DNA of 64,000 nucleotides from Planctomycetota bacterium (GCA_020638905.1 JACKHP010000001.1:282792-346791); one strand, 5' to 3'; counted from the first letter of the stretch, positions 27,801 to 35,610 are shown. Notes: generated by a model from the sequence alone, not told the origin. Translations and numbers: made by a program.

Positions 27801-28640
27801 ATGACGATGCTGCGCGAGCGCATGCAGCAGGACATGCGCATCCGGAACCTGTCGCCGAGGACGCAGGCGTGTTACCTCGGTCACGTCGAGCAGTTCGGCA
27901 AGCACTTCGGCCGATCGCCGGAGACGCTCGATCTCGAGCACATTCGCGCCTACCAGGTGCATCTCGTCGAGGTGAAGAAGGCGTCGTGGTCGGCGTTCAA
28001 CCAGGCGGTGTGCGCGTTGCGCTTCTTGTACGGTGTGACGCTCGGAAAGGACTGGGCGATCGAGCACATCCCGCACGCGAAGCGGGAGAAGAAGCTCCCG
28101 TCGGTACTGTCGAGGGACGAAGTGCGGCGCGTGCTCGACGCGGTGAGGAACGCCAGACAGCGCGTGTTGTTGACGACGATCTACGCCGCGGGGCTGCGGC
28201 TGTCGGAGGCGCTCTCGCTGAAGGTGGGCGACGTGGACAGCGAGCGTATGGTGCTGCACGTGCACCGCGGGAAGGGTGGCAAGGATCGGATGGTGCCGTT
28301 GTCGCCGGTGCTGCTCGAGCACCTGCGGGAGTACTGGAGGTGCCACCGTCCGAGGACGTACCTCTTCCCGGGGGCGAAGCCCGACAAGCCGCTCAACCCG
28401 ACGTCGGTCCAGAAGGCGATGCAGACCGCGCGGCTGCGGGCGGGCATCCGCAAGCCGGCGTCGGTCCACACGCTGCGGCACTGCTACGCGACGCACCTGC
28501 TCGAGTCGGGGACGGACCTGCGTCGCATCCAGACCTGGCTCGGGCACACGAGCCTGAACACGACGGCCGTCTACCTCCACGTATGCAGCGCGACGACCGG
28601 CGGTCGCAGTCCACTCGATTCCCTGACGACGACCGGCTGA
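27801..28640 (+). CDS. Tyrosine-type site-specific recombinase (IS91-associated; IntI-like but lacking the IntI-specific insertion)
   Basis: 279 aa. R..HxxR..Y catalytic pattern (AGLRLSE, HTLRHCYATHLL, LGHTSLNTTAVYLHV). Confidence 0.85.
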   Translation: MTMLRERMQQDMRIRNLSPRTQACYLGHVEQFGKHFGRSPETLDLEHIRAYQVHLVEVKKASWSAFNQAVCALRFLYGVTLGKDWAIEHIPHAKREKKLPSVLSRDEVRRVLDAVRNARQRVLLTTIYAAGLRLSEALSLKVGDVDSERMVLHVHRGKGGKDRMVPLSPVLLEHLREYWRCHRPRTYLFPGAKPDKPLNPTSVQKAMQTARLRAGIRKPASVHTLRHCYATHLLESGTDLRRIQTWLGHTSLNTTAVYLHVCSATTGGRSPLDSLTTTG

Positions 28641-28655
28641 CGCGGTCGTCCTGCG

Positions 28656-29840
28656 ATGGGACGGCCATCCCTCGAGGTGGCCGACGTGATCGTCGCGCAC
28701 GCGGCCGGGCTGCTCGCGCGAGGCGGTGTCACGTCGGCGCGACGGCGCGTGCTCGTCGATCTCGCAGCGTGCCGCACGTCGGCGCTGGGCGGGCACGCCG
28801 ATGAGTGCCAGTCCTGCGGCCACGCGCGCGTGTCGTACAACTCATGTCGCAACCGGCACTGCCCGAAGTGCCAGGGGAGCCGGCGCGCGGCGTGGGTGGA
28901 GGCGCAGGAGGCGCGGCTCCTGCCCGTGCCGTACTTCCACGTCGTCTTCACGCTGCCGGCACAGATTGCCGAAATTGCGCTCCAGAACAAGCGCGAACTC
29001 TACGGTCTCCTGTTCCGCGCGTCGGCCGAGACGCTCCAGCAGGTGGCTCGCGATCCGAGGCACCTCGGCGGCGAGATCGGCTTCGTCTCGCTGCTGCACA
29101 CGTGGAGCCAGACGCTGCAGCACCATCCCCACGTGCATGTCATCGTGGCGGGCGGCGGCTTGTCGGCGGACGGCGCGCGCTGGGTCGCCTGTCGGCCAGG
29201 CTTCTTCCTGCCGGTGCGCGTGCTCGGTCGCGTCTTCCGCGGCAAGTTCCTGGCGGGACTGGAAGCGCTCCGTCGGCAAGGCCGACTGCGCTGGCAAGGC
29301 CGCCTCGAAGACCTGCGCGACGACCGAGCTTGGCGACAACGCCAGCGCGAGGCTCGACGACTCGAGTGGGTCGTGTACGCCAAGAGTCCCTTTGGCGGTG
29401 TCGACTGCGCTCTGCGTTACCTGGCGCGATACACACATCGCGTCGCGATCTCGAACGAGCGACTGCTCTCACTGCACGACGGCGTCGTCGCCTTCCGGTA
29501 TCGCGACTCGGCGCACGGCAACCGCGCGCGCACGATGCGACTCGATGCACAGGAATTCCTGCGCCGCTTCCTGCTGCACGTCCTGCCGAAGGGCTTCCCC
29601 AAGCTGCGCTCGTACGGCTTCCTCGCCAATCGGTCATGCAAACTCGACCGCTGCCGCGAACTGCTCGGCGTCGAAGCGGATCCCGGCGTCCGAGCCGACG
29701 AGTCGTCGGCTGCAGACGAAGTCGAGCGCCGCTGCCCGACCTGTGGAGGCCGCGAGATCGTCCGCAAGGACCTCCCGAAGCGATCCGAGGCGACCGAACA
29801 CCTTCGTGTCGCTCAGGCCAAGAGACTCGACACCTCATGA
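28656..29840 (+). CDS. IS91-family transposase (zinc-binding N-terminus, HUH, Y2)
   Basis: CxxC...CxxC zinc-ribbon motifs (CQSCGH, CRNRHCPKC), HUH-like HHPHVHVIV, and a paired-tyrosine segment RYLARYTHR. Confidence 0.85.
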   Translation: MGRPSLEVADVIVAHAAGLLARGGVTSARRRVLVDLAACRTSALGGHADECQSCGHARVSYNSCRNRHCPKCQGSRRAAWVEAQEARLLPVPYFHVVFTLPAQIAEIALQNKRELYGLLFRASAETLQQVARDPRHLGGEIGFVSLLHTWSQTLQHHPHVHVIVAGGGLSADGARWVACRPGFFLPVRVLGRVFRGKFLAGLEALRRQGRLRWQGRLEDLRDDRAWRQRQREARRLEWVVYAKSPFGGVDCALRYLARYTHRVAISNERLLSLHDGVVAFRYRDSAHGNRARTMRLDAQEFLRRFLLHVLPKGFPKLRSYGFLANRSCKLDRCRELLGVEADPGVRADESSAADEVERRCPTCGGREIVRKDLPKRSEATEHLRVAQAKRLDTS

Positions 29841-30108: not shown

Positions 30109-30206
30109 GTTCAACACGCGCTTTCCCGAATGGCCTCGAGCTCGAGACGTCCGGCAACTCGGGGTCGTCGTGCGAGGCCACTCGGGAAAGCGCGCTACCG
30201 TTAGGC
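30109..30206 (+). other. attC-like recombination site (98 bp)
   Basis: GTTCAAC at 30109-30115 and GTTAGGC at 30200-30206. The arms 30118-30138 and 30173-30193 are complementary at 20 of 21 positions. The next ORF starts 8 nt after the core site. Confidence 0.7.
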
Positions 30207-30213
30207 GAGTTCG

Positions 30214-31032
30214 ATGACATCACTCGTTGCCTACTGCGATGAGAGTGGTCAGCGTGACTACGGCACTGGCACGGATCGCCACTTCGTTGTCGCCGGCGTG
30301 GTTGCCAACGCTACGGAGGCCTCGCAGCTTGAAGACGAGTTACGAGGCTTGAAGCGTGCCTTCTGGGGTAACCCAGACATCGAGCTCAAGTCAAACTGGG
30401 TGCGCATCCCGTCGGCCCGGAGGAAGAACTACACCGACAAGCACGGAATCCAGCAGAAGCAAATCGAGTCGCTGCTTGCCGCCGTCTATCCCTGGCTCGA
30501 GAACGCGCCGATTCGACTCCTCGCCGCCGTTGTTGACAAACAGCAAATGGAAGCCAGATACAAGGAGCCGCACTACTCTGGCACTGTGGCATACACCGTC
30601 TTTCTGCAGCGCCTGCAGAAGTACGCTGCGAAGGTGAACGCTACGGCGAACGTCGTCTTCGACGACCCCGCAGGCAAATCGCCTGGCGGGTTTGACTGGC
30701 GAGACCTTCTGCTGAGGCTTCATGCGAAACTCCTCAAGCACGGGTGTCCATACACGAGGACCACGTTCGATCGCATTGGTACGCTTACATTCACAGACTC
30801 CACGGCTAGTCCATTCGTGCAGATCGCTGATCAGGTGTCGTACAACGTCTTCCGCCAGTTCCGGGACCACGGCGACGCGTGGGAGGACGACTCGCTCAAG
30901 AACCTACCGATGTACAAATACTTCCAGCTCATGATCGACATGTTCGATCAGGGCCCTAGCCGACAGTTCGCCGGGTTTGGAGTAACGAAATGGCCGATCG
31001 ACAAGAAGGTGCAATGGGTCGTCACAGGCTGA
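30214..31032 (+). CDS. DUF3800-family protein (cassette-borne)
   Basis: 272 aa. The N-terminal VAYCDESGQ motif and overall pattern match my recollection of DUF3800. A/T-richer codon usage than the host genes. Confidence 0.7.
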   Translation: MTSLVAYCDESGQRDYGTGTDRHFVVAGVVANATEASQLEDELRGLKRAFWGNPDIELKSNWVRIPSARRKNYTDKHGIQQKQIESLLAAVYPWLENAPIRLLAAVVDKQQMEARYKEPHYSGTVAYTVFLQRLQKYAAKVNATANVVFDDPAGKSPGGFDWRDLLLRLHAKLLKHGCPYTRTTFDRIGTLTFTDSTASPFVQIADQVSYNVFRQFRDHGDAWEDDSLKNLPMYKYFQLMIDMFDQGPSRQFAGFGVTKWPIDKKVQWVVTG

Positions 31033-31035
31033 ATC

Positions 31036-31102
31036 GCCTAACACGGCCTTGCATCGGACGGTCCACTTCGCGGCCCGCCGGTGAACGCCAGACCCGTTAG
31101 GG
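31036..31102 (+). other. attC-like recombination site (67 bp)
   Basis: GCCTAAC at 31036-31042 and GTTAGGG at 31096-31102 pair over 6 bp. The inner imperfect stem has unpaired bases on the 5' arm. It begins 4 nt after the upstream stop and ends 8 nt before the next ATG. Confidence 0.55.
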
Positions 31103-31109
31103 TAATGAA

Positions 31110-31373
31110 ATGACCAATCAGGACGTACAACCTGCAAGTCTACGTTTCGACGAATCAGAAAGCTTCGCGGATAATTGTGAATCGTTCCTCGTGCGCCTCG
31201 AAGAAGTAGACGCAGAGATGGCCACCATTCTGCGCGGCAATTGGGATGCACTGGTCGCGATCGTCCGCGAGGGAGAAAGAGATTCGAAGGCGCGCGGCGA
31301 ACTCAATGCCAAGGTCGCTTCGGCGCTGGACGCTCTTGTTGCCAAGCCGGCTGAGCCTAAAGGCGGTGCATGA
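31110..31373 (+). CDS. Small acidic protein (hypothetical), translationally coupled to the downstream ATPase
   Basis: 87-aa ORF rich in Asp/Glu. Its stop overlaps the next start (ATGA at 31370-31373). Confidence 0.55.
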   Translation: MTNQDVQPASLRFDESESFADNCESFLVRLEEVDAEMATILRGNWDALVAIVREGERDSKARGELNAKVASALDALVAKPAEPKGGA

Positions 31374-33871
31374 TGCCGCGATACTACCTCACACGACTCG
31401 CCGTTGAGGGGTTCCGCGGCGTCAATAACGAGAACGATCCCCTCGATATCCGCTTCCGACCGGATGCCGTCAACTCCGTGTTTGCCGTCAATGGCATCGG
31501 AAAAAGTTCCATATTCGAAGCGCTGTGCTACGCAATCCACGGGGCCATCCCAAAGCTCCAGTTACTTCAGGCGCAGGAACATCCACAGGACTACTATTGC
31601 AACCGGTTCCACTCAAAGAACACCGCCTCCATTCTCATGGAGTTCCAGCCGGATGACGGCGCCGCCCCCGTTGCCGTCCAGGTTGAGCGCGACGAGGTCG
31701 GCAACCGAACGGTAACCAGCCCGAGCGGACACGCCGATCCCGAAGGGTTCCTCGCGACGCTCAAGGAGGCGTTCGCGCTTCTCGATTACAGGACGTTCGC
31801 CCGGTTCATCGAGGAATCCCCCTTGGAACGAGGGCGTACGTTTTCAGCTCTGCTGGGCCTCGCGGAATACTCCGATTGCCGCCAGGCGCTACAGGCAGCC
31901 TCGGATTCCCGGGCCCTCAATACGGACCTTGAGATCAAGGTTCTGGCCACGGAGATTGGCGCTGCGCGAAAAGCGGCGCAGCAGGCACTTGTCACCCTCA
32001 GGTCGAGCTACGAGAACGTCACGGGCAAGCCTATGGAAGACATTGGCACGCTTGATGAATGTGCCGCCGAAGTCTCCACCGCTTTGGGCAACGTGGAACT
32101 CCTGAAGCCCCATTTCACCGGCAAGACCTTGAACGAAATCGACTTCCATAAGATGAAGACGGCGATCAAGACGGCCGAAGGGGGAGAGAAGCGCCGCGAG
32201 CTGGAGAAGACCATCGACTCCATCGCGGCCCTTGAAGCGCTCGCCGTGCACGATTTTCGCGCCATAGCGGCCGATCAACGGAACATCGGTGAGCTGATCG
32301 ACGAGCGCGATAAATTGCTTGCCTCGACCCGCGGCGACCTTTTCAAGCGCTTGTACGAGTCCGCCAGGGAAGTGATTACGAAGGGCGTCTGGACGGAGGA
32401 CGAGAAGTGTCCCTTGTGCGAAAGTGACCTTTCGTCATCGATAAGCGGACACGTGACTGCGCAATTAGCCCAGTACGCCGGTGCGGCAGACAAGATCACT
32501 GAGATCAGGGATACGTGGCTGGCTTCCGCGTGGAAGAAATGCCTTTCGGCCCATGAAGCGGCGGCGCCGCTGGCCGTGGAGCCGGAAAAGCGGCAATTGT
32601 CAGCACTGGATACGAAATTTACGTCTGGCGACATCTCCAAGGACCAGTTGGCCAGCGCAGTAAAGTGGACTTCAGACCTCACGGGAAAAGTCGCCGGGAC
32701 TCGCAAGGCCGCCCAGGACCGCAAAGAAGCGCTCGAGAAGGAACTGCCCCAGTCACTTGTCCAGCTCACGGAGCAGGTTGAGTATGGGCGGCAGTTCAAA
32801 GACGCGCTGGAGCTCTACCGGGATAACCGGAAGGATGAAGCCGCGCAGCAGGCGCGCCGCGATATCCGTGAGAGATGGAAGACGTTCATTTCAATAGCCA
32901 CGACGGTCTTCGCCGATGCCGAGGCAGCTTTGTCGAAGGCCAGAATCAAGGGCATAGATGCGGAGTACAAGTCGATGTTCCGCGAGATCATGCAGGTCGG
33001 TGACGTGGTCCCCAACCTGCGCCGCGCGGATGACAGGGAAGATCTTCACGTCCAGCTCAGCGACTTTCACGGACAGCACAGGTTGTCCGCGCGGGCACTC
33101 TTGTCGGAAAGCTACCGCAACGCGCTTGCAATTTCCGTTTTCCTCGCAGCTGCCCTCAAACATTCCGGCGCGCCGCGTTTCGTCGTGCTGGATGACGTGA
33201 CATCCAGCTTCGATGCCGGGCACCAGTATTTCCTGATGGAGCTGATACGCACGAAACTTCAGCAGCCGCAGCACGCCAAAGGCCTCCAGTTCATCATCCT
33301 GAGCCACGACGGCTTGCTGGAGAAGTATTTCGACCGGCTGGGTGGCGAGACCGGGTGGCATCACAACAAGCTTCAAGGTTCGTCGCCGATGGGCGCGATC
33401 TTACATCAGGCGCAAGGGGCGGATCGCCTCAAGACGACGATTGCGTCGCTTCTCTCCGCCGGTCAGGTGTCGCAGGCAGAGCCGCTCATTCGTCAGTACC
33501 TGGAGTACAAGCTCCAGCAGATCATTCGCAAGGTCGATATCCCGGTGCCGATCGATTTCGCGATCAAGGACACGTCCCGCATGGTCCGCAATTGTCTCGA
33601 CGCCATCACCTCCGCGATCGAACTGCACAAGAAGGCCGGAACGCTCGTGCTCGATGCGCAGCAGGTTCAGGATACCGACACGTCGCATGTCCCCGCGATT
33701 GTCGGTAACTGGGTCAGCCACTATGAGACAGGTTCGGGCAGCAACCTTTCCGCTCCCGCCCTTGGCGGCGTAATCAGGTCTATCGACGCGCTTGCAGAAT
33801 GCTTCAGGTACGATGACACGTCCGGCGGCTCTACTGTGCGCAGATGGTACAAGTCGCTTTCAAAACGGTAG
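31370..33871 (+). CDS. Rad50/SMC-like ABC ATPase with coiled-coil zinc hook and PrrC/RloC-like C-terminal domain (putative anticodon-nuclease-type defence protein)
   Basis: Walker A AVNGIGKSS (residues 39-47). CPLC at residues 347-350 (nt 32408-32419) sits mid-way through a long helical insert. Signature-like LSESYRNAL, Walker B RFVVLDDV and H-loop ILSHD follow. The C-terminal tail has R708-x3-E712 and NWVSH784. Confidence 0.6.
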   Translation: MMPRYYLTRLAVEGFRGVNNENDPLDIRFRPDAVNSVFAVNGIGKSSIFEALCYAIHGAIPKLQLLQAQEHPQDYYCNRFHSKNTASILMEFQPDDGAAPVAVQVERDEVGNRTVTSPSGHADPEGFLATLKEAFALLDYRTFARFIEESPLERGRTFSALLGLAEYSDCRQALQAASDSRALNTDLEIKVLATEIGAARKAAQQALVTLRSSYENVTGKPMEDIGTLDECAAEVSTALGNVELLKPHFTGKTLNEIDFHKMKTAIKTAEGGEKRRELEKTIDSIAALEALAVHDFRAIAADQRNIGELIDERDKLLASTRGDLFKRLYESAREVITKGVWTEDEKCPLCESDLSSSISGHVTAQLAQYAGAADKITEIRDTWLASAWKKCLSAHEAAAPLAVEPEKRQLSALDTKFTSGDISKDQLASAVKWTSDLTGKVAGTRKAAQDRKEALEKELPQSLVQLTEQVEYGRQFKDALELYRDNRKDEAAQQARRDIRERWKTFISIATTVFADAEAALSKARIKGIDAEYKSMFREIMQVGDVVPNLRRADDREDLHVQLSDFHGQHRLSARALLSESYRNALAISVFLAAALKHSGAPRFVVLDDVTSSFDAGHQYFLMELIRTKLQQPQHAKGLQFIILSHDGLLEKYFDRLGGETGWHHNKLQGSSPMGAILHQAQGADRLKTTIASLLSAGQVSQAEPLIRQYLEYKLQQIIRKVDIPVPIDFAIKDTSRMVRNCLDAITSAIELHKKAGTLVLDAQQVQDTDTSHVPAIVGNWVSHYETGSGSNLSAPALGGVIRSIDALAECFRYDDTSGGSTVRRWYKSLSKR

Positions 33872-33901: not shown

Positions 33902-33961
33902 GCCTAACAACAGCATGCAGCGGCCGGCGCTGCGCGCCGCCGCTGATGCTGAGCGTTAGCG
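33902..33961 (+). other. attC-like recombination site (60 bp)
   Basis: GCCTAAC at 33902-33908 and GTTAGCG at 33955-33961. An internal stem of about 18 bp spans 33911-33930 and 33934-33951, with two unpaired bases (G33917, C33925) on the 5' arm and a 3-nt loop. Confidence 0.75.
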
Positions 33962-33980: not shown

Positions 33981-34604
33981 ATGAAGGGCCAGAAGCGTAC
34001 GAGCAATAGGGCCACAGATGGCTGGCACGACCCGGATCCGTTCACGATCGTTGTGGGTACGATCGGCGCGCTAGGTGGTGTTGCGGCTGTTGCTGCAGCG
34101 GCAGGGCAGTTGGGTGAGTCGCGCAGACGGAAGCGGAGTCGCAGGGTATATGACCAATTGAGTGGTCTGCTCACCGACATCGAGATGCTCACTCACGAAC
34201 TTGATGCGACACATCGTAAGCTAGAGGCCATACTTGGTTCAGCAAGGCGGTCGGCAAACGACGTCGCAGATCGACACCACAGGGCGGAGTTCGGCGGATA
34301 CAGTCCTGAGTTTCGATTGCCCGACCTCCGTCGCTTCGAATACCTTACCCGAGACGCTGGGCGGGTTTGCGGTGAGCTTCAACACAAGAGCTGTCGGCTA
34401 ATCCGCAAGCTCACCCAGGCCGAAGTCGGTTTTGGCGAGGGGCCTTATCGCTTGCTCACACAATTGAGGCGCGAGCTCAACGCTCTCCTTGAACATCGCG
34501 AGTCATACGACGAGGCGGTGTCTCGATTGTATCGTGCCATCGAGCTGGGCCGGCGAGCGATCAGAGCAATTAAGGATGATCTGTTTGGGGCCGATCTTCG
34601 ATGA
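33981..34604 (+). CDS. Hypothetical single-pass membrane protein with helical cytoplasmic domain (cassette-borne)
   Basis: 207-aa ORF with a basic N-terminus, a TM helix (FTIVVGTIGALGGVAAVAAAAG), an RRRKRSRR tract, then predicted helices. No family recognised. Confidence 0.5.
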   Translation: MKGQKRTSNRATDGWHDPDPFTIVVGTIGALGGVAAVAAAAGQLGESRRRKRSRRVYDQLSGLLTDIEMLTHELDATHRKLEAILGSARRSANDVADRHHRAEFGGYSPEFRLPDLRRFEYLTRDAGRVCGELQHKSCRLIRKLTQAEVGFGEGPYRLLTQLRRELNALLEHRESYDEAVSRLYRAIELGRRAIRAIKDDLFGADLR

Positions 34605-34956
34605 TGCTCAGATGCAAGATCGAAGGGCCCGCTAGCACGTGTAAGGCACCGCGTTGTCAAGGGCGGATCTCCTCTGGCCACGACTGAGTGACGTGGATGA
34701 TGTCGAGAGTACGTGAGTGTCCAGCCGTGCCTGTCTCGGGTTGCCTTGTCGGTGCGGAGCGTCGCCCTGCACCAAAAACGTGTCGAGGATCGACCACCAG
34801 GCCTCGTTGGAGTGCGGCCGGTGGCGCTGTCGCAATCGACAAGCCATCCGTTGCAGGGTGGACTACGGGCTGCGAGCGCCCCGGCAGCTGATCGAGAACC
34901 GGATGACGCCCGACCGTCACGTGAGTAGACTCACCGCTCCTCCGGAGCGCCCCGCG

Positions 34957-35610
34957 ATGGACGCCGACCCGCACCCTCTCGCCACCCCTCGCTCCACCGA
35001 CCCCGCGCCCGCGCACGCCGGCCCCTTCGCGACCCTCGAACTTCCCGCGCCGTCGGCCCCGCTGCCGGCACACTTCATGAAGCGCTGGGGGTCCCTCTCG
35101 CTCGCGATGCAGGGGGACGAGTTCGATCGCTTCGTCCCCACGCTGCAGCGCCGGGCGGACGAGATCGACGCGGGGCTCGTGCGCGCGCTGCTGGGCGAGG
35201 TCAACTGGCGGCCGCGGCTCGTCGGGGCGTACCTGGCGGCGGTGAAGGGGCTGTGCGAGGTCGACGAGCTCGTCGCGCGGCTGCTGCTGCGCAGCGACCT
35301 GTGCTTCGCGGGGAAGGGCTACTGCCTCGCGCTGGCGTGCTTCGACACCGAGGTCGCGCGAAAAGCGCTCGACGACTACCTCGGCCACTACCTGTCCCGG
35401 CCCGACCTGCACTTCGACCAGGGCGACGCGATGGCCGCGCTCGGCCACCTCGACGCGCGGCACGGGACGCACGCGCGCGACGCGCACCTGCCGGCGTGGG
35501 AGGCGTTCGTGGCCGACAAGCCGCGCTGGCGGCTGCGGCGCTTCGACGAGCAGCTCGCGGCGCGCCTGGCCGCGGTCGAGCGCGCCCGCGGCGCGACGTC
35601 CGAGGTCTGA
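34957..35610 (+). CDS. Hypothetical protein
   Basis: Internal start MDADPHPL in ORF 34717..35610. Host-like high GC. No motif recognised. Confidence 0.45.
   Translation: MDADPHPLATPRSTDPAPAHAGPFATLELPAPSAPLPAHFMKRWGSLSLAMQGDEFDRFVPTLQRRADEIDAGLVRALLGEVNWRPRLVGAYLAAVKGLCEVDELVARLLLRSDLCFAGKGYCLALACFDTEVARKALDDYLGHYLSRPDLHFDQGDAMAALGHLDARHGTHARDAHLPAWEAFVADKPRWRLRRFDEQLAARLAAVERARGATSEV

Follow-up and report, generated by a model that had tools for sequence, protein, structure and literature searches.

A two-gene integron cassette of a Planctomycetota bacterium encoding a Rad50/RloC-like zinc-hook ATPase with a predicted HEPN-like tail and a small acidic partner, a candidate abortive-infection module

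Two overlapping genes in a 64,000-nucleotide stretch of DNA from a Planctomycetota bacterium (GCA_020638905.1, JACKHP010000001.1:282792-346791; the whole stretch is referred to as the window) encode an acidic protein of 87 amino acids (aa) and a Rad50/RloC-like ATP-binding cassette (ABC) ATPase of 833 aa, which carries a zinc hook and a C-terminal tail predicted to be HEPN-like. The pair constitutes one attC-bounded integron cassette and is probably a two-component abortive-infection module of the RloC/PrrC type, in a partner-dependent variant for which we infer the activity, the target and the role of the partner. Both open reading frames (ORFs), which an initial annotation of the window had pointed out together with their ATGA overlap, agree with the ORF list and with the sequence, the stop of the first and the start of the second sharing positions 31370-31373.

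31110..31373, plus strand: small acidic partner ORF, 87 aa, isoelectric point (pI) 4.46, net charge -7, no known domain (ORF list)
31370..33871, plus strand: 833-aa Rad50/RloC-like ABC ATPase with zinc hook and C-terminal HEPN-like tail (ORF list)

The motifs by which the large protein had been described (AVNGIGKSS, CPLC, LSESYRNAL, RFVVLDDV, ILSHD, RQYLE and NWVSH) were all found again when their residue positions were recomputed, and their conservation was followed in an alignment of 66 full-length relatives with 24–66% identity to the window protein. The head, arms and hook comprise the following elements.

31493..31510, plus strand: Walker A/P-loop GIGKSS, residues 42-47 (N41, G44, K45 and S47 invariant in the 66 members)
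31862..32380, plus strand: ascending helical arm of the coiled coil, about residues 165-337 (predicted helices H165-177 through H323-337)
32408..32419, plus strand: zinc-hook CPLC, residues 347-350, in the apical loop between the arms (C347 and C350 invariant, P348 in 62/66)
32441..32992, plus strand: descending helical arm of the coiled coil, about residues 358-541 (predicted helices H358-384 through H461-541)
33101..33127, plus strand: ABC signature-like LSESYRNAL, residues 578-586 (L578 and E580 invariant, S581 and N584 in 65/66)
33176..33229, plus strand: Walker B and D-loop RFVVLDDVTSSFDAGHQ, residues 603-619 (D608, D609, S612, S613, D615 and Q619 invariant)
33296..33310, plus strand: H-loop ILSHD, residues 643-647 (H646 and D647 invariant)

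The Walker B core, RFVVLDDV at residues 603-610, has Asp-Asp in place of Asp-Glu and is followed by a D-loop of the form SSFD-x2-H, and Q640 is to be added to the invariant columns given above. A full-length AlphaFold2 (AF2) model based on the 66-sequence alignment (pLDDT 89.2) places the two head lobes at residues 1-165 and 546-680, the arms, about 170–180 aa each on either side of the hook, at 165-337 and 358-541, and a separate helical domain at 684-826, with the CPLC situated in a non-helical apex (338-357) between H323-337 and H358-384. When comparing this model with the PDB using Foldseek, the closest folds were an SMC head with coiled coil (4e-14), Rad50 (1.7e-13) and LmuB of the Salmonella Lamassu system (1.6e-11), which together with the apical CPxC bears out the split ABC head and the helical insert with a Rad50-style hook that the initial annotation had proposed.

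Searches by sequence gave a similar picture for the head. The Pfam and PADLOC searches that had been suggested matched it with AAA_23 (1.4e-8, above cut-off), SMC_N (1.7e-9) and AAA_13 (5.9e-7), the latter two below cut-off, and with LmuB, and left the tail unmatched. The AAA_13 match reaches 29 bits against a cut-off of 36 bits and places residues 344-655 on profile positions 254-578 of 713, while the best PADLOC model, LmuB PDLC03859 (2.2e-21), covers residues 139-653 and is followed by mad3 and PDC-S06. Among the NCBIfam models only sub-threshold relatives of SMC, RecF and SbcC were found, and a PDB sequence search with the full-length family profile returned Rad50/SMC heads only; PrrC, RloC and LmuB were not found in PDB sequence searches with either the tail or the full-length profile. 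As modelled, the 833-aa protein is a Rad50/SMC/LmuB-type split ABC head with a long antiparallel helical arm ending in an invariant CPxC hook, and that it is a Rad50-like hook ATPase is almost certain. Judging from the alignment, its features are not due to chance, because C347, C350, R708, E712, N780 and H784 are invariant in 66 members at 24–66% identity.

The tail was modelled separately and contains two conserved motifs.

33419..33847, plus strand: C-terminal HEPN-like helical domain, residues 684-826, predicted RNase effector (AF2 tail-only model, pLDDT 88, pTM 0.83)
33491..33505, plus strand: R708-Q709-Y-L-E712 in tail helix 2 (R708 and E712 invariant, Q709 in 58/66), corresponding to PrrC R320-N321-x2-E324
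33707..33721, plus strand: N780-W-V-S783-H784 at the C-terminal end of tail helix 3 (N780 and H784 invariant, 66/66; S783 in 45/66), corresponding to PrrC N352-x3-H356

Counted in tail residues, the model consists of a helix at 11-25 (protein 682-696), a helix at 29-50 carrying R708 and E712, a short helix at 57-61 and another at 64-85, a helix at 92-115 with N780 and H784 at its C-terminal end, a helix at 124-139 and a beta-hairpin, giving the order helix 1, helix 2 (R/E), helical insert, helix 3 (N..SH at its end) and helix 4. The invariant residues of the tail in the 66 members are R708, E712, N780, H784 and F812, of which the first four are the only polar ones. A search with residues 660-833 against 1.84 billion representative proteins recovered 156 proteins; all full-length matches are about 800–920 aa long, mostly 820–850, and always have the tail at the C-terminus, the remainder being fragments, and the tail domain therefore exists in this architecture only. 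No relevant family was found in a Pfam scan of 46 diverse tails (0/46, with chance matches scattered), no PADLOC model matched the tail, and a fold search in BFVD gave nothing.

The top PDB neighbours of the tail in Foldseek are 2q00 (prob 0.99, E 0.095, TM 0.44/0.56) and then 2hsb, both HEPN proteins. HEPN domains are built on a four-helix core that often has extra helices inserted between helices 2 and 3, with a conserved acidic residue in helix 2 and a His motif where helix 3 ends, and part of them are non-catalytic (PMC3710099). In the tail model E712 lies in helix 2 and H784 ends helix 3, and of the HEPN motif Rx4-6H the His is present and the Arg absent. HEPN families without the R are documented, and the PaREP1 family, which includes 2q00, "lacks R but H is conserved", as in the tail. 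The likeness to the HEPN-T/PaREP1-type 2q00 and to AF0298 (2hsb) thus extends to the four-helix core, the insert between helices 2 and 3 and, for PaREP1, the retained His, but these are stand-alone archaeal proteins of 120–130 aa with MNT-type gene partners, and their identity to the tail is 12–14% at a Foldseek E of only 0.1. From the model a HEPN fold is probable, and it seems fairly likely that the tail is a catalytic HEPN-type RNase. At the very end 29 of the 66 members carry a CxC...CxC element, probably a zinc ribbon; in the window protein (residues 813-833, 33806-33868) all four terminal Cys are lost and the AF2 model keeps the beta-hairpin.

The initial annotation had recognised in the tail the triad of the PrrC/RloC anticodon nucleases (ACNases), and this relation was followed through head, hook and tail. 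In RloC the motif is Arg-x3-Glu-x36-52-His, often with a Ser preceding the His (PMC2610378). The protein of G. kaustophilus (GkaRloC), 804 aa long, has its hook at C291 and its triad at R692/E696/H737 (Davidov & Kaufmann 2008, PMC2610378), to be compared with C347 and R708/E712/H784 in the 833 aa here. The ACNase of RloC is under the control of the hook and a DNA-dependent ATPase (PMC3458546). The essential nuclease residues of EcoPrrC include R320, N321 (Asn or Gln in homologues), E324, R349, N352 and H356, both N352A and N352D being inactive; D215/D216, where Glu is not tolerated, S219/S220, D222 and H251 are essential too (PMC3025547). PrrC orthologues were recovered using a degenerate DNA pattern for KYGDSNKSFSY in metagenomes, together with IMG/VR and plasmids, and read FIDDPVSSLDENH at Walker B and D-loop. 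Their helix 2 motif is LLRNLYEK versus LIRQYLEYK in the window protein and their helix 3 motif RIINFTSHS versus AIVGNWVSHY, and the PrrC signature ISKGEESNF is resembled by LSESYRNAL. Five of the six essential PrrC nuclease positions are matched in the window tail by kind and internal spacing, four of them being the only invariant polar residues of the tail, and the equivalent of N352, an Asn four residues before the His, is N780 in 66/66. The rule for the RloC/PrrC triad, Arg-x3-Glu...His with a Ser before the His and Asn or Gln after the Arg, is followed by R708, Q709, E712, S783 and H784. Of the head, the residues typical of RloC and PrrC (Walker A, signature-like loop, Asp-Asp Walker B, SSxD D-loop and switch His) are all present and invariant in the 66 members, and the RloC-type CxxC hook is present in the coiled-coil insert between the head halves.

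The resemblance to RloC therefore concerns the whole design, one chain of about 800 aa whose ABC head is interrupted by a coiled coil bearing a CxxC hook and is followed by a C-terminal helical domain with R-x3-E...(S)H, and also the occasional linkage to type III restriction-modification (R-M) or ArdC-type genes and the sporadic, mobile distribution. With PrrC the window protein shares the Asp-Asp Walker B, the SSxD-x2-H D-loop, the S-x-x-E-x-x-N signature region, the nuclease motifs L-R-[NQ]-x-x-E-[KY] and N-[FW]-x-S-H and, presumably, the concept of an RNase silenced by a partner protein. PrrC differs in its size (about 390 aa, without coiled coil or hook), in being embedded between hsd genes, in having the LARP motif for tRNA-Lys recognition and R349, neither of which is found in the window protein, and in its silencer, which is an R-M enzyme (EcoprrI, type Ic) and not a small acidic protein. 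Compared with RloC, the window tail cannot be aligned by AAA_13 or PDC-S06 and about half of the family adds the C-terminal 4-Cys element. Both of these models match the window protein as well as PrrC. AAA_13 covers the nuclease domain of PrrC (PrrC 134-351 on profile 485-694); the match of the window protein ends at profile position 578, residue 655, and that of PDC-S06 at about residue 655, short of the tail.

When aligning the tail profile with PrrC C-domains by hhalign, three versions with rising PrrC diversity gave P values of 0.03–0.075, and the score of 18.2 (P 0.03) was equalled in 15 of 150 block shuffles and in 3 of 150 column shuffles. The low-stringency alignment of tail and PrrC is collinear, with both motifs and the last helix aligned, which is no proof of homology. 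As such a proof hhalign was rejected, the P values of 0.03–0.075 not being robust to block shuffling.

Several points weigh against placing the protein beside RloC and PrrC. Neither Pfam nor hhalign linked the tail significantly to the nuclease domains of PrrC or RloC, by sequence or by profile, so that the match to such domains which the initial annotation had called for was not obtained (0/46 tails in Pfam, hhalign P 0.03). An equivalent of PrrC R349, which represents the Arg of the HEPN motif Rx4-6H and is said to be conserved in RloC, is absent from the family, position 777, seven residues ahead of the His, being I, L, V or Q and R708 the only invariant Arg of the tail. The E-to-H spacing is 71 residues versus 36–52 in RloC and 31 in PrrC, because extra helices (tail residues 57-85) are inserted between the two motif helices. 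The E-values of the tail in Foldseek are weak, the best being 0.095, and helical bundles match easily, for which reason the HEPN fold is only a probable assignment. The strongest PADLOC match of the whole protein is LmuB and no RloC-type model, and the likeness to RloC was judged from published descriptions of RloC. Finally, RloC of G. kaustophilus is active without any partner (PMC2610378), so that the role of the small acidic protein has no precedent in the RloC family. The triad thus stands as regards its residues (R708, E712 and H784 invariant, Q709 and N780 matching too, HEPN structural neighbours) and does not stand as an alignment. The RloC-like interpretation was largely right, yet it is only partly supported, because the tail is tied to PrrC/RloC by motifs, fold and architecture and not by a significant alignment, and because one essential PrrC Arg is missing. 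From alignment and model, what the window protein appears to be is an RloC architecture with PrrC/RloC-type candidate catalytic residues on a HEPN-like fold, and homology of the tail to the PrrC/RloC nuclease domain is plausible.

The PrrC orthologues themselves, with 47–71% identity, are found on 22 IMG/VR viral contigs (L135-L156). On plasmids they are located between hsdS and hsdM/hsdR genes, as expected, and the plasmid genes listed in a tblastn search with PrrC were PrrC-like throughout, at about 345–440 aa.

The small protein had been described as highly acidic, which is overstated although acidic it is, with 17 D+E versus 10 K+R. To follow the pair through other genomes, a survey with one genome per species (185,579 species) identified 241 loci, of which 80 were fetched and 79 could be analysed. 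An ORF of 70–90 aa whose end lies at +1 or +4, counted from the ATPase start, was present in 78 of the 79, and one hidden Markov model (HMM) recognises all 78; the initial annotation had named lack of such conservation as something that would speak against its proposal, and the ORF is conserved. The small-ORF family has a mean net charge of -5.9 and a mean pI of 4.8. Four further loci, obtained by exact-protein look-up, all have an ORF of 79–88 aa abutting or overlapping the ATPase start and 45–74% identical to that of the window. When the small-protein profile was run against 5.8 billion proteins it retrieved 86 members only, 50–115 aa long and mostly 68–115 aa, none with a Pfam domain or a name. 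The small protein is thus specific for the ATPase, is made in a fixed ratio to it and, as read from the gene arrangement, is an obligate partner coupled to it in translation; a role as regulatory subunit is probable. A conserved third gene was not found across the 79 loci.

No match to the small protein was found among the Pfam, PADLOC and NCBIfam models, a Pfam scan of 35 small proteins gave chance matches only, the PADLOC LmuC models gave nothing at E<=1, and no ribbon-helix-helix, helix-turn-helix or other DNA-binding domain was detected. The small ORF was consequently rejected as an LmuC or a known antitoxin, as no model matches.

The pair had been proposed to be a single cassette bounded by attC-like sites, and this is what the sequence holds.

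31036..31102, plus strand: upstream attC-like site GCCTAAC...GTTAGGG, 5' cassette boundary (pattern match 31038-31100; bottom-strand hairpin z -1.4)
33902..33961, plus strand: downstream attC-like site GCCTAAC...GTTAGCG, 3' cassette boundary (pattern match 33904-33959; hairpin -25.1 kcal/mol, z -3.25)

The pattern CTAAC-N40-70-GTTAG occurs twice in the 64-kb window versus 0.03 times by chance, and both matches directly flank the two genes. The bottom strands of both sites form hairpins closed by the CCTAAC/GTTAG boxes (R''/R'); the stability of the downstream one was equalled in none of 200 shuffles, and the upstream one, with a z of -1.4, is weak. The R' boxes GTTAGGG and GTTAGCG depart from GTTRRRY in the final one or two letters, and because they end in G or CG a strict GTTRRRY scan misses the sites of the window; a relaxed pattern was thus used in the homologue loci. 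There the same 60-nt site recurs 30 nt past the stop codon in two loci of other organisms (L009 and L010) that carry 85%-identical homologues, and a decayed attC copy was identified in a Nitrospira metagenome-assembled genome (MAG; loci labelled L012 and L004), where the module lies beside a Gabija system. Loci flanked by attC are a minority and most family loci are not cassettes. The cassette has a G+C content of 59% compared to 73% for the window and is part of a low-GC island at about 27.2–34.7 kb. When scanning the cassette for a sigma-70 promoter and a terminator nothing exceeded chance.

The complete Nitrospira arrangement (L004 4149-7779) consists of the module, the decayed attC and a 192-aa ORF directly upstream of a Gabija-like pair of an OLD-family ATPase/TOPRIM protein and a UvrD helicase.

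Of the 185,579 species genomes, at least 241 contain the family, which spans more than 10 phyla and is also found on conjugative plasmids. Homologues with 69–92% identity occur in Planctomycetota, Alphaproteobacteria, Acidobacteriota (Bryobacterales) and Nitrospirota (Nitrospira), which indicates recent horizontal transfer. Using tblastn 18 full-length members were found on plasmids of Rhizobium, Bradyrhizobium, Sinorhizobium, Rhodococcus, Arthrobacter and others, and 13 of the 27 matching plasmid records are conjugative. These comparisons indicate that the module moves horizontally between phyla, as an integron cassette in this lineage and on plasmids and defence or mobile islands elsewhere. 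No family members were found in IMG/VR or among the INPHARED phages, which neither supports nor contradicts a role in defence. A phage-encoded origin was rejected on the same grounds.

The 131 immediate neighbour ORFs include 10 HTH_3 regulators, 7–8 type III restriction enzymes, 5 integrases and 3 resolvases as well as ArdC, ArdA, an MmeI-type IIG enzyme, EcoRII, pAgo, HamC, DrmMI and IetA. Gabija borders one locus, and MmeI and T5orf172 border another. This distribution is what would be expected of a mobile defence gene and echoes the "restriction-linked" contexts of RloC. In Litorimonas (L001 1537-7499) a DEAD/ResIII helicase, T5orf172, the small ORF and the ATPase form an overlapping four-gene string, and in a subclade of about 41% identity (L066, L075, L077, L078, L080, L085 and L086) immediately upstream of the small ORF lies the end of a gene for a type III restriction enzyme of 862 aa (PADLOC 3e-186). 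That such genes abut the small ORF suggests larger operons in some lineages.

Three plasmid loci of sister families were also identified.

L169 1176-3786: sister-family locus on a Brucella anthropi plasmid, 73 aa + 798 aa
L170 1179-3786: sister-family locus on an Aliiroseovarius plasmid, 71 aa + 799 aa
L168 2304-4930: sister-family locus on a Phaeobacter plasmid, 58 aa + 817 aa

In all three the genes overlap, the hook CP[FM]C is situated near residue 310, the Walker B/D-loop reads DDxVxSxD and the tail contains R-x3-E, then N-x2-[SV]-H and then a C-terminal 4-Cys element, with an E-to-H spacing in the sister families of 66–84. When aligning the window-family tail with the Brucella-type tail hhalign gave a probability of 97% (E 1e-10, 145 columns), and the R, E, S and H positions are in register; no link to PrrC was found for the sister-family tail (P 0.16). 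The small ORFs of the sister families cannot be aligned with those of the window family (P 0.12) and are equally small and acidic, with net charges of -5 to -7.

For the mechanism the following is proposed. Two ATPase chains would pair through the zinc hook and their ATP-engaged heads, by analogy with Rad50, RloC and LmuB, and head and arm would sense abnormal DNA, or loss of restriction, during infection; Lamassu is known to sense DNA ends. The tail would be a metal-independent HEPN-type endoribonuclease that is silent in the resting complex and, once freed, could cut tRNA anticodon loops or other essential RNA, so that translation stops and the infection is aborted. tRNA would be the most likely substrate, and anticodon loops are a possible target, which we hold with less than even confidence. 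The small acidic protein would be a stoichiometric regulatory subunit, most likely holding the nuclease or the DNA-binding heads off, and its silencing of the tail would be the in-cis equivalent of the silencing of PrrC by EcoprrI.

A compacted Lamassu/ABC-3C-type system is the main rival to this module of the RloC/PrrC type, which it overlaps and does not exclude; the two differ chiefly in what the small protein would contact. In the rival an LmuB-like protein would sense DNA ends, the small protein would be the counterpart of the middle component LmuC, or of the C-terminal Rad50-binding part of SbcD, on the hook-proximal arm and a head, and the effector would be fused in cis; DNA ends or hairpins would release the tail for oligomerisation. 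This agrees with the best PADLOC match being LmuB over residues 139-653, with the solved LmuB chains 9hqu and 9hqx being among the top structural matches (1.6e-11 for 9hqu_A) and with the small ORF lying just upstream of the ATPase gene with a stop/start overlap, as LmuC does. Like Lamassu, DdmABC and ABC-3C, the cassette encodes a Rad50-derived ATPase with a short arm, a CxxC hook is found in many Lamassu clades, and here too a sequestered effector would be released on DNA sensing. However, Rad50 and SMC score equal to or better than LmuB as structural matches, and by sequence the family profile finds Rad50 and SMC but not the solved LmuB. Within the attC-bounded cassette no separate LmuA-type effector was found, the effector being fused to the C-terminus of the ATPase in contrast to the separate LmuA with its C-terminal domain, and it is HEPN-like and not Cap4, Mrr, Sir2 or a protease. 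Furthermore the small protein lacks an LmuC match at E<=1, is half the usual LmuC size, unrelated in sequence to the LmuC models, and acidic, whereas LmuC binds DNA via Lys/Arg, and the Asp-Asp Walker B, the SSxD-x2-H D-loop and the effector motif are PrrC-like or PrrC/RloC-like. Taken together a Lamassu-like system is rather unlikely.

Addiction and repair are less likely still. The cassette could act as a toxin-antitoxin-like module that stabilises the array, plasmid or island, where a labile small protein neutralises the RNase-ATPase as toxin and phage defence is a side effect at most, and the gene order, a small upstream gene followed by an overlapping larger toxin-like gene, would suit this, as would the presence of the module on plasmids, integron cassettes and mobile islands and the fact that HEPN RNases are common toxins of this kind and that integron cassettes are known to carry RNase toxins (PMC3710099). 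But no DNA-binding or autoregulatory domain can be recognised in the small protein, an 830-aa ATP-driven zinc-hook sensor is far more elaborate than such a toxin requires, and the neighbours are enriched in R-M and other defence genes and not in maintenance genes alone, which makes addiction improbable. Very improbable is a Rad50/SbcC paralogue for DNA repair or processing, with the C-terminal domain as a non-catalytic binder of protein or nucleic acid, the small protein as an accessory and no immune RNase, even though sequence and fold similarity are strongest to Rad50 and SMC heads, database names include "RecF", "SbcCD ATPase subunit" and "double-strand break repair" and certain HEPN domains are non-catalytic (PMC3710099). 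A nuclease partner of the Mre11/SbcD type was not found at the loci examined, the sporadic spread (241 loci in 185,579 species, 69–92% identity across phyla) is that of a mobile accessory and not of a housekeeping gene, the gene is located in an integron cassette of foreign G+C, and an invariant R/E/N/H set is what an active site typically shows.

Keeping to the abortive-infection module of RloC/PrrC type, a wider proposal can be put forward only tentatively and as doubtful in its entirety. The window family and at least two plasmid sister families might form a superfamily of the kind "sensor-effector in one chain plus acidic clamp", which would link RloC-type tRNases evolutionarily and mechanistically to the three-component Lamassu. 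The acidic partner would then be a DNA mimic or arm clamp on the Rad50-like DNA site, displaced by phage DNA ends or anti-restriction proteins, whereupon two tails might dimerise into an R-less HEPN site (R/E of helix 2, N/H of helix 3), an arrangement not in any solved HEPN RNase.

RloC, PrrC, Lamassu and integron cassettes carrying defence genes are already known. In the literature covered, the scope of which did not extend to the ABC-ATPase classification of Krishnan et al. 2020, where the clade might appear, no description was found of the window family with its unannotated tail and partner, of an obligate small acidic partner whose position is kept in at least three sister families, of the R-less HEPN-like active-site constellation with helical insert, or of integron-cassette packaging of this family. 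Current defence finders miss the family, PADLOC showing an orphan LmuB-like ATPase only and Pfam nothing in tail or partner. If the proposed reading is true, the family would consist of unannotated immune nucleases directed at translation, accompanied by two sister families, and would be a natural experiment on a Rad50-type zinc-hook ATPase gating a fused RNase, in which a built-in partner replaces the restriction enzyme that silences PrrC. As no structure of a PrrC or RloC nuclease domain turned up in the PDB searches and the family is well-behaved, its confident models (pLDDT 88–89) and compact two-gene form make it a good route to the long-missing structure of that domain.

Integron cassettes can encode anti-phage systems (Darracq et al. 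2024, 10.1101/2024.07.02.601686; Kieffer et al., 10.1101/2024.07.02.601719). As in those, a complete compact defence-type module is contained here in one attC-bounded cassette, next to other candidate defence cassettes, but the host is a Planctomycetota MAG and the sedentary-integron paper names no RloC/PrrC-type or ABC-ATPase system. A large two-gene ABC-ATPase system is thereby added to the cassette functions outside Vibrio and clinical integrons.

When analysing the surroundings of the cassette a bona fide IntI with attI was not found next to the array. The nearest recombinase, a 279-aa tyrosine recombinase at 27801-28640 (+), has as its best NCBIfam model "integron integrase" TIGR02249 with 211 bits in two stretches, the cut-off being 265 bits, and is directly followed by an IS91-family transposase (NF033538, 409 bits), the pair spanning 27801-29840 (+) on the same strand as the cassettes. 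This pair is no classical intI/attI arrangement, and since the IntI-like recombinase is below cut-off, co-oriented and followed by the IS91 transposase, the array resembles an attC cluster that lacks an integrase of its own. Upstream of the two-gene cassette lies a neighbouring one encoding a DUF3800 protein at 30214-31032 (Pfam 4.7e-16, with a faint match to PADLOC PDC-M04A), located between the upstream boundary at 31036-31102 and a third attC-like site at 30109-30206 (z -3.9) that precedes it. Downstream, a 207-aa ORF at 33981-34604 (+) shows faint CARF-HEPN/Csx1 matches at residues 172-190 only and belongs to no family; it has no clear attC after it, and the low-GC island stops near 34.7 kb. 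A DUF6000 protein at 34717-35610 (+; Pfam 6.1e-39) begins where the high-GC host sequence resumes.

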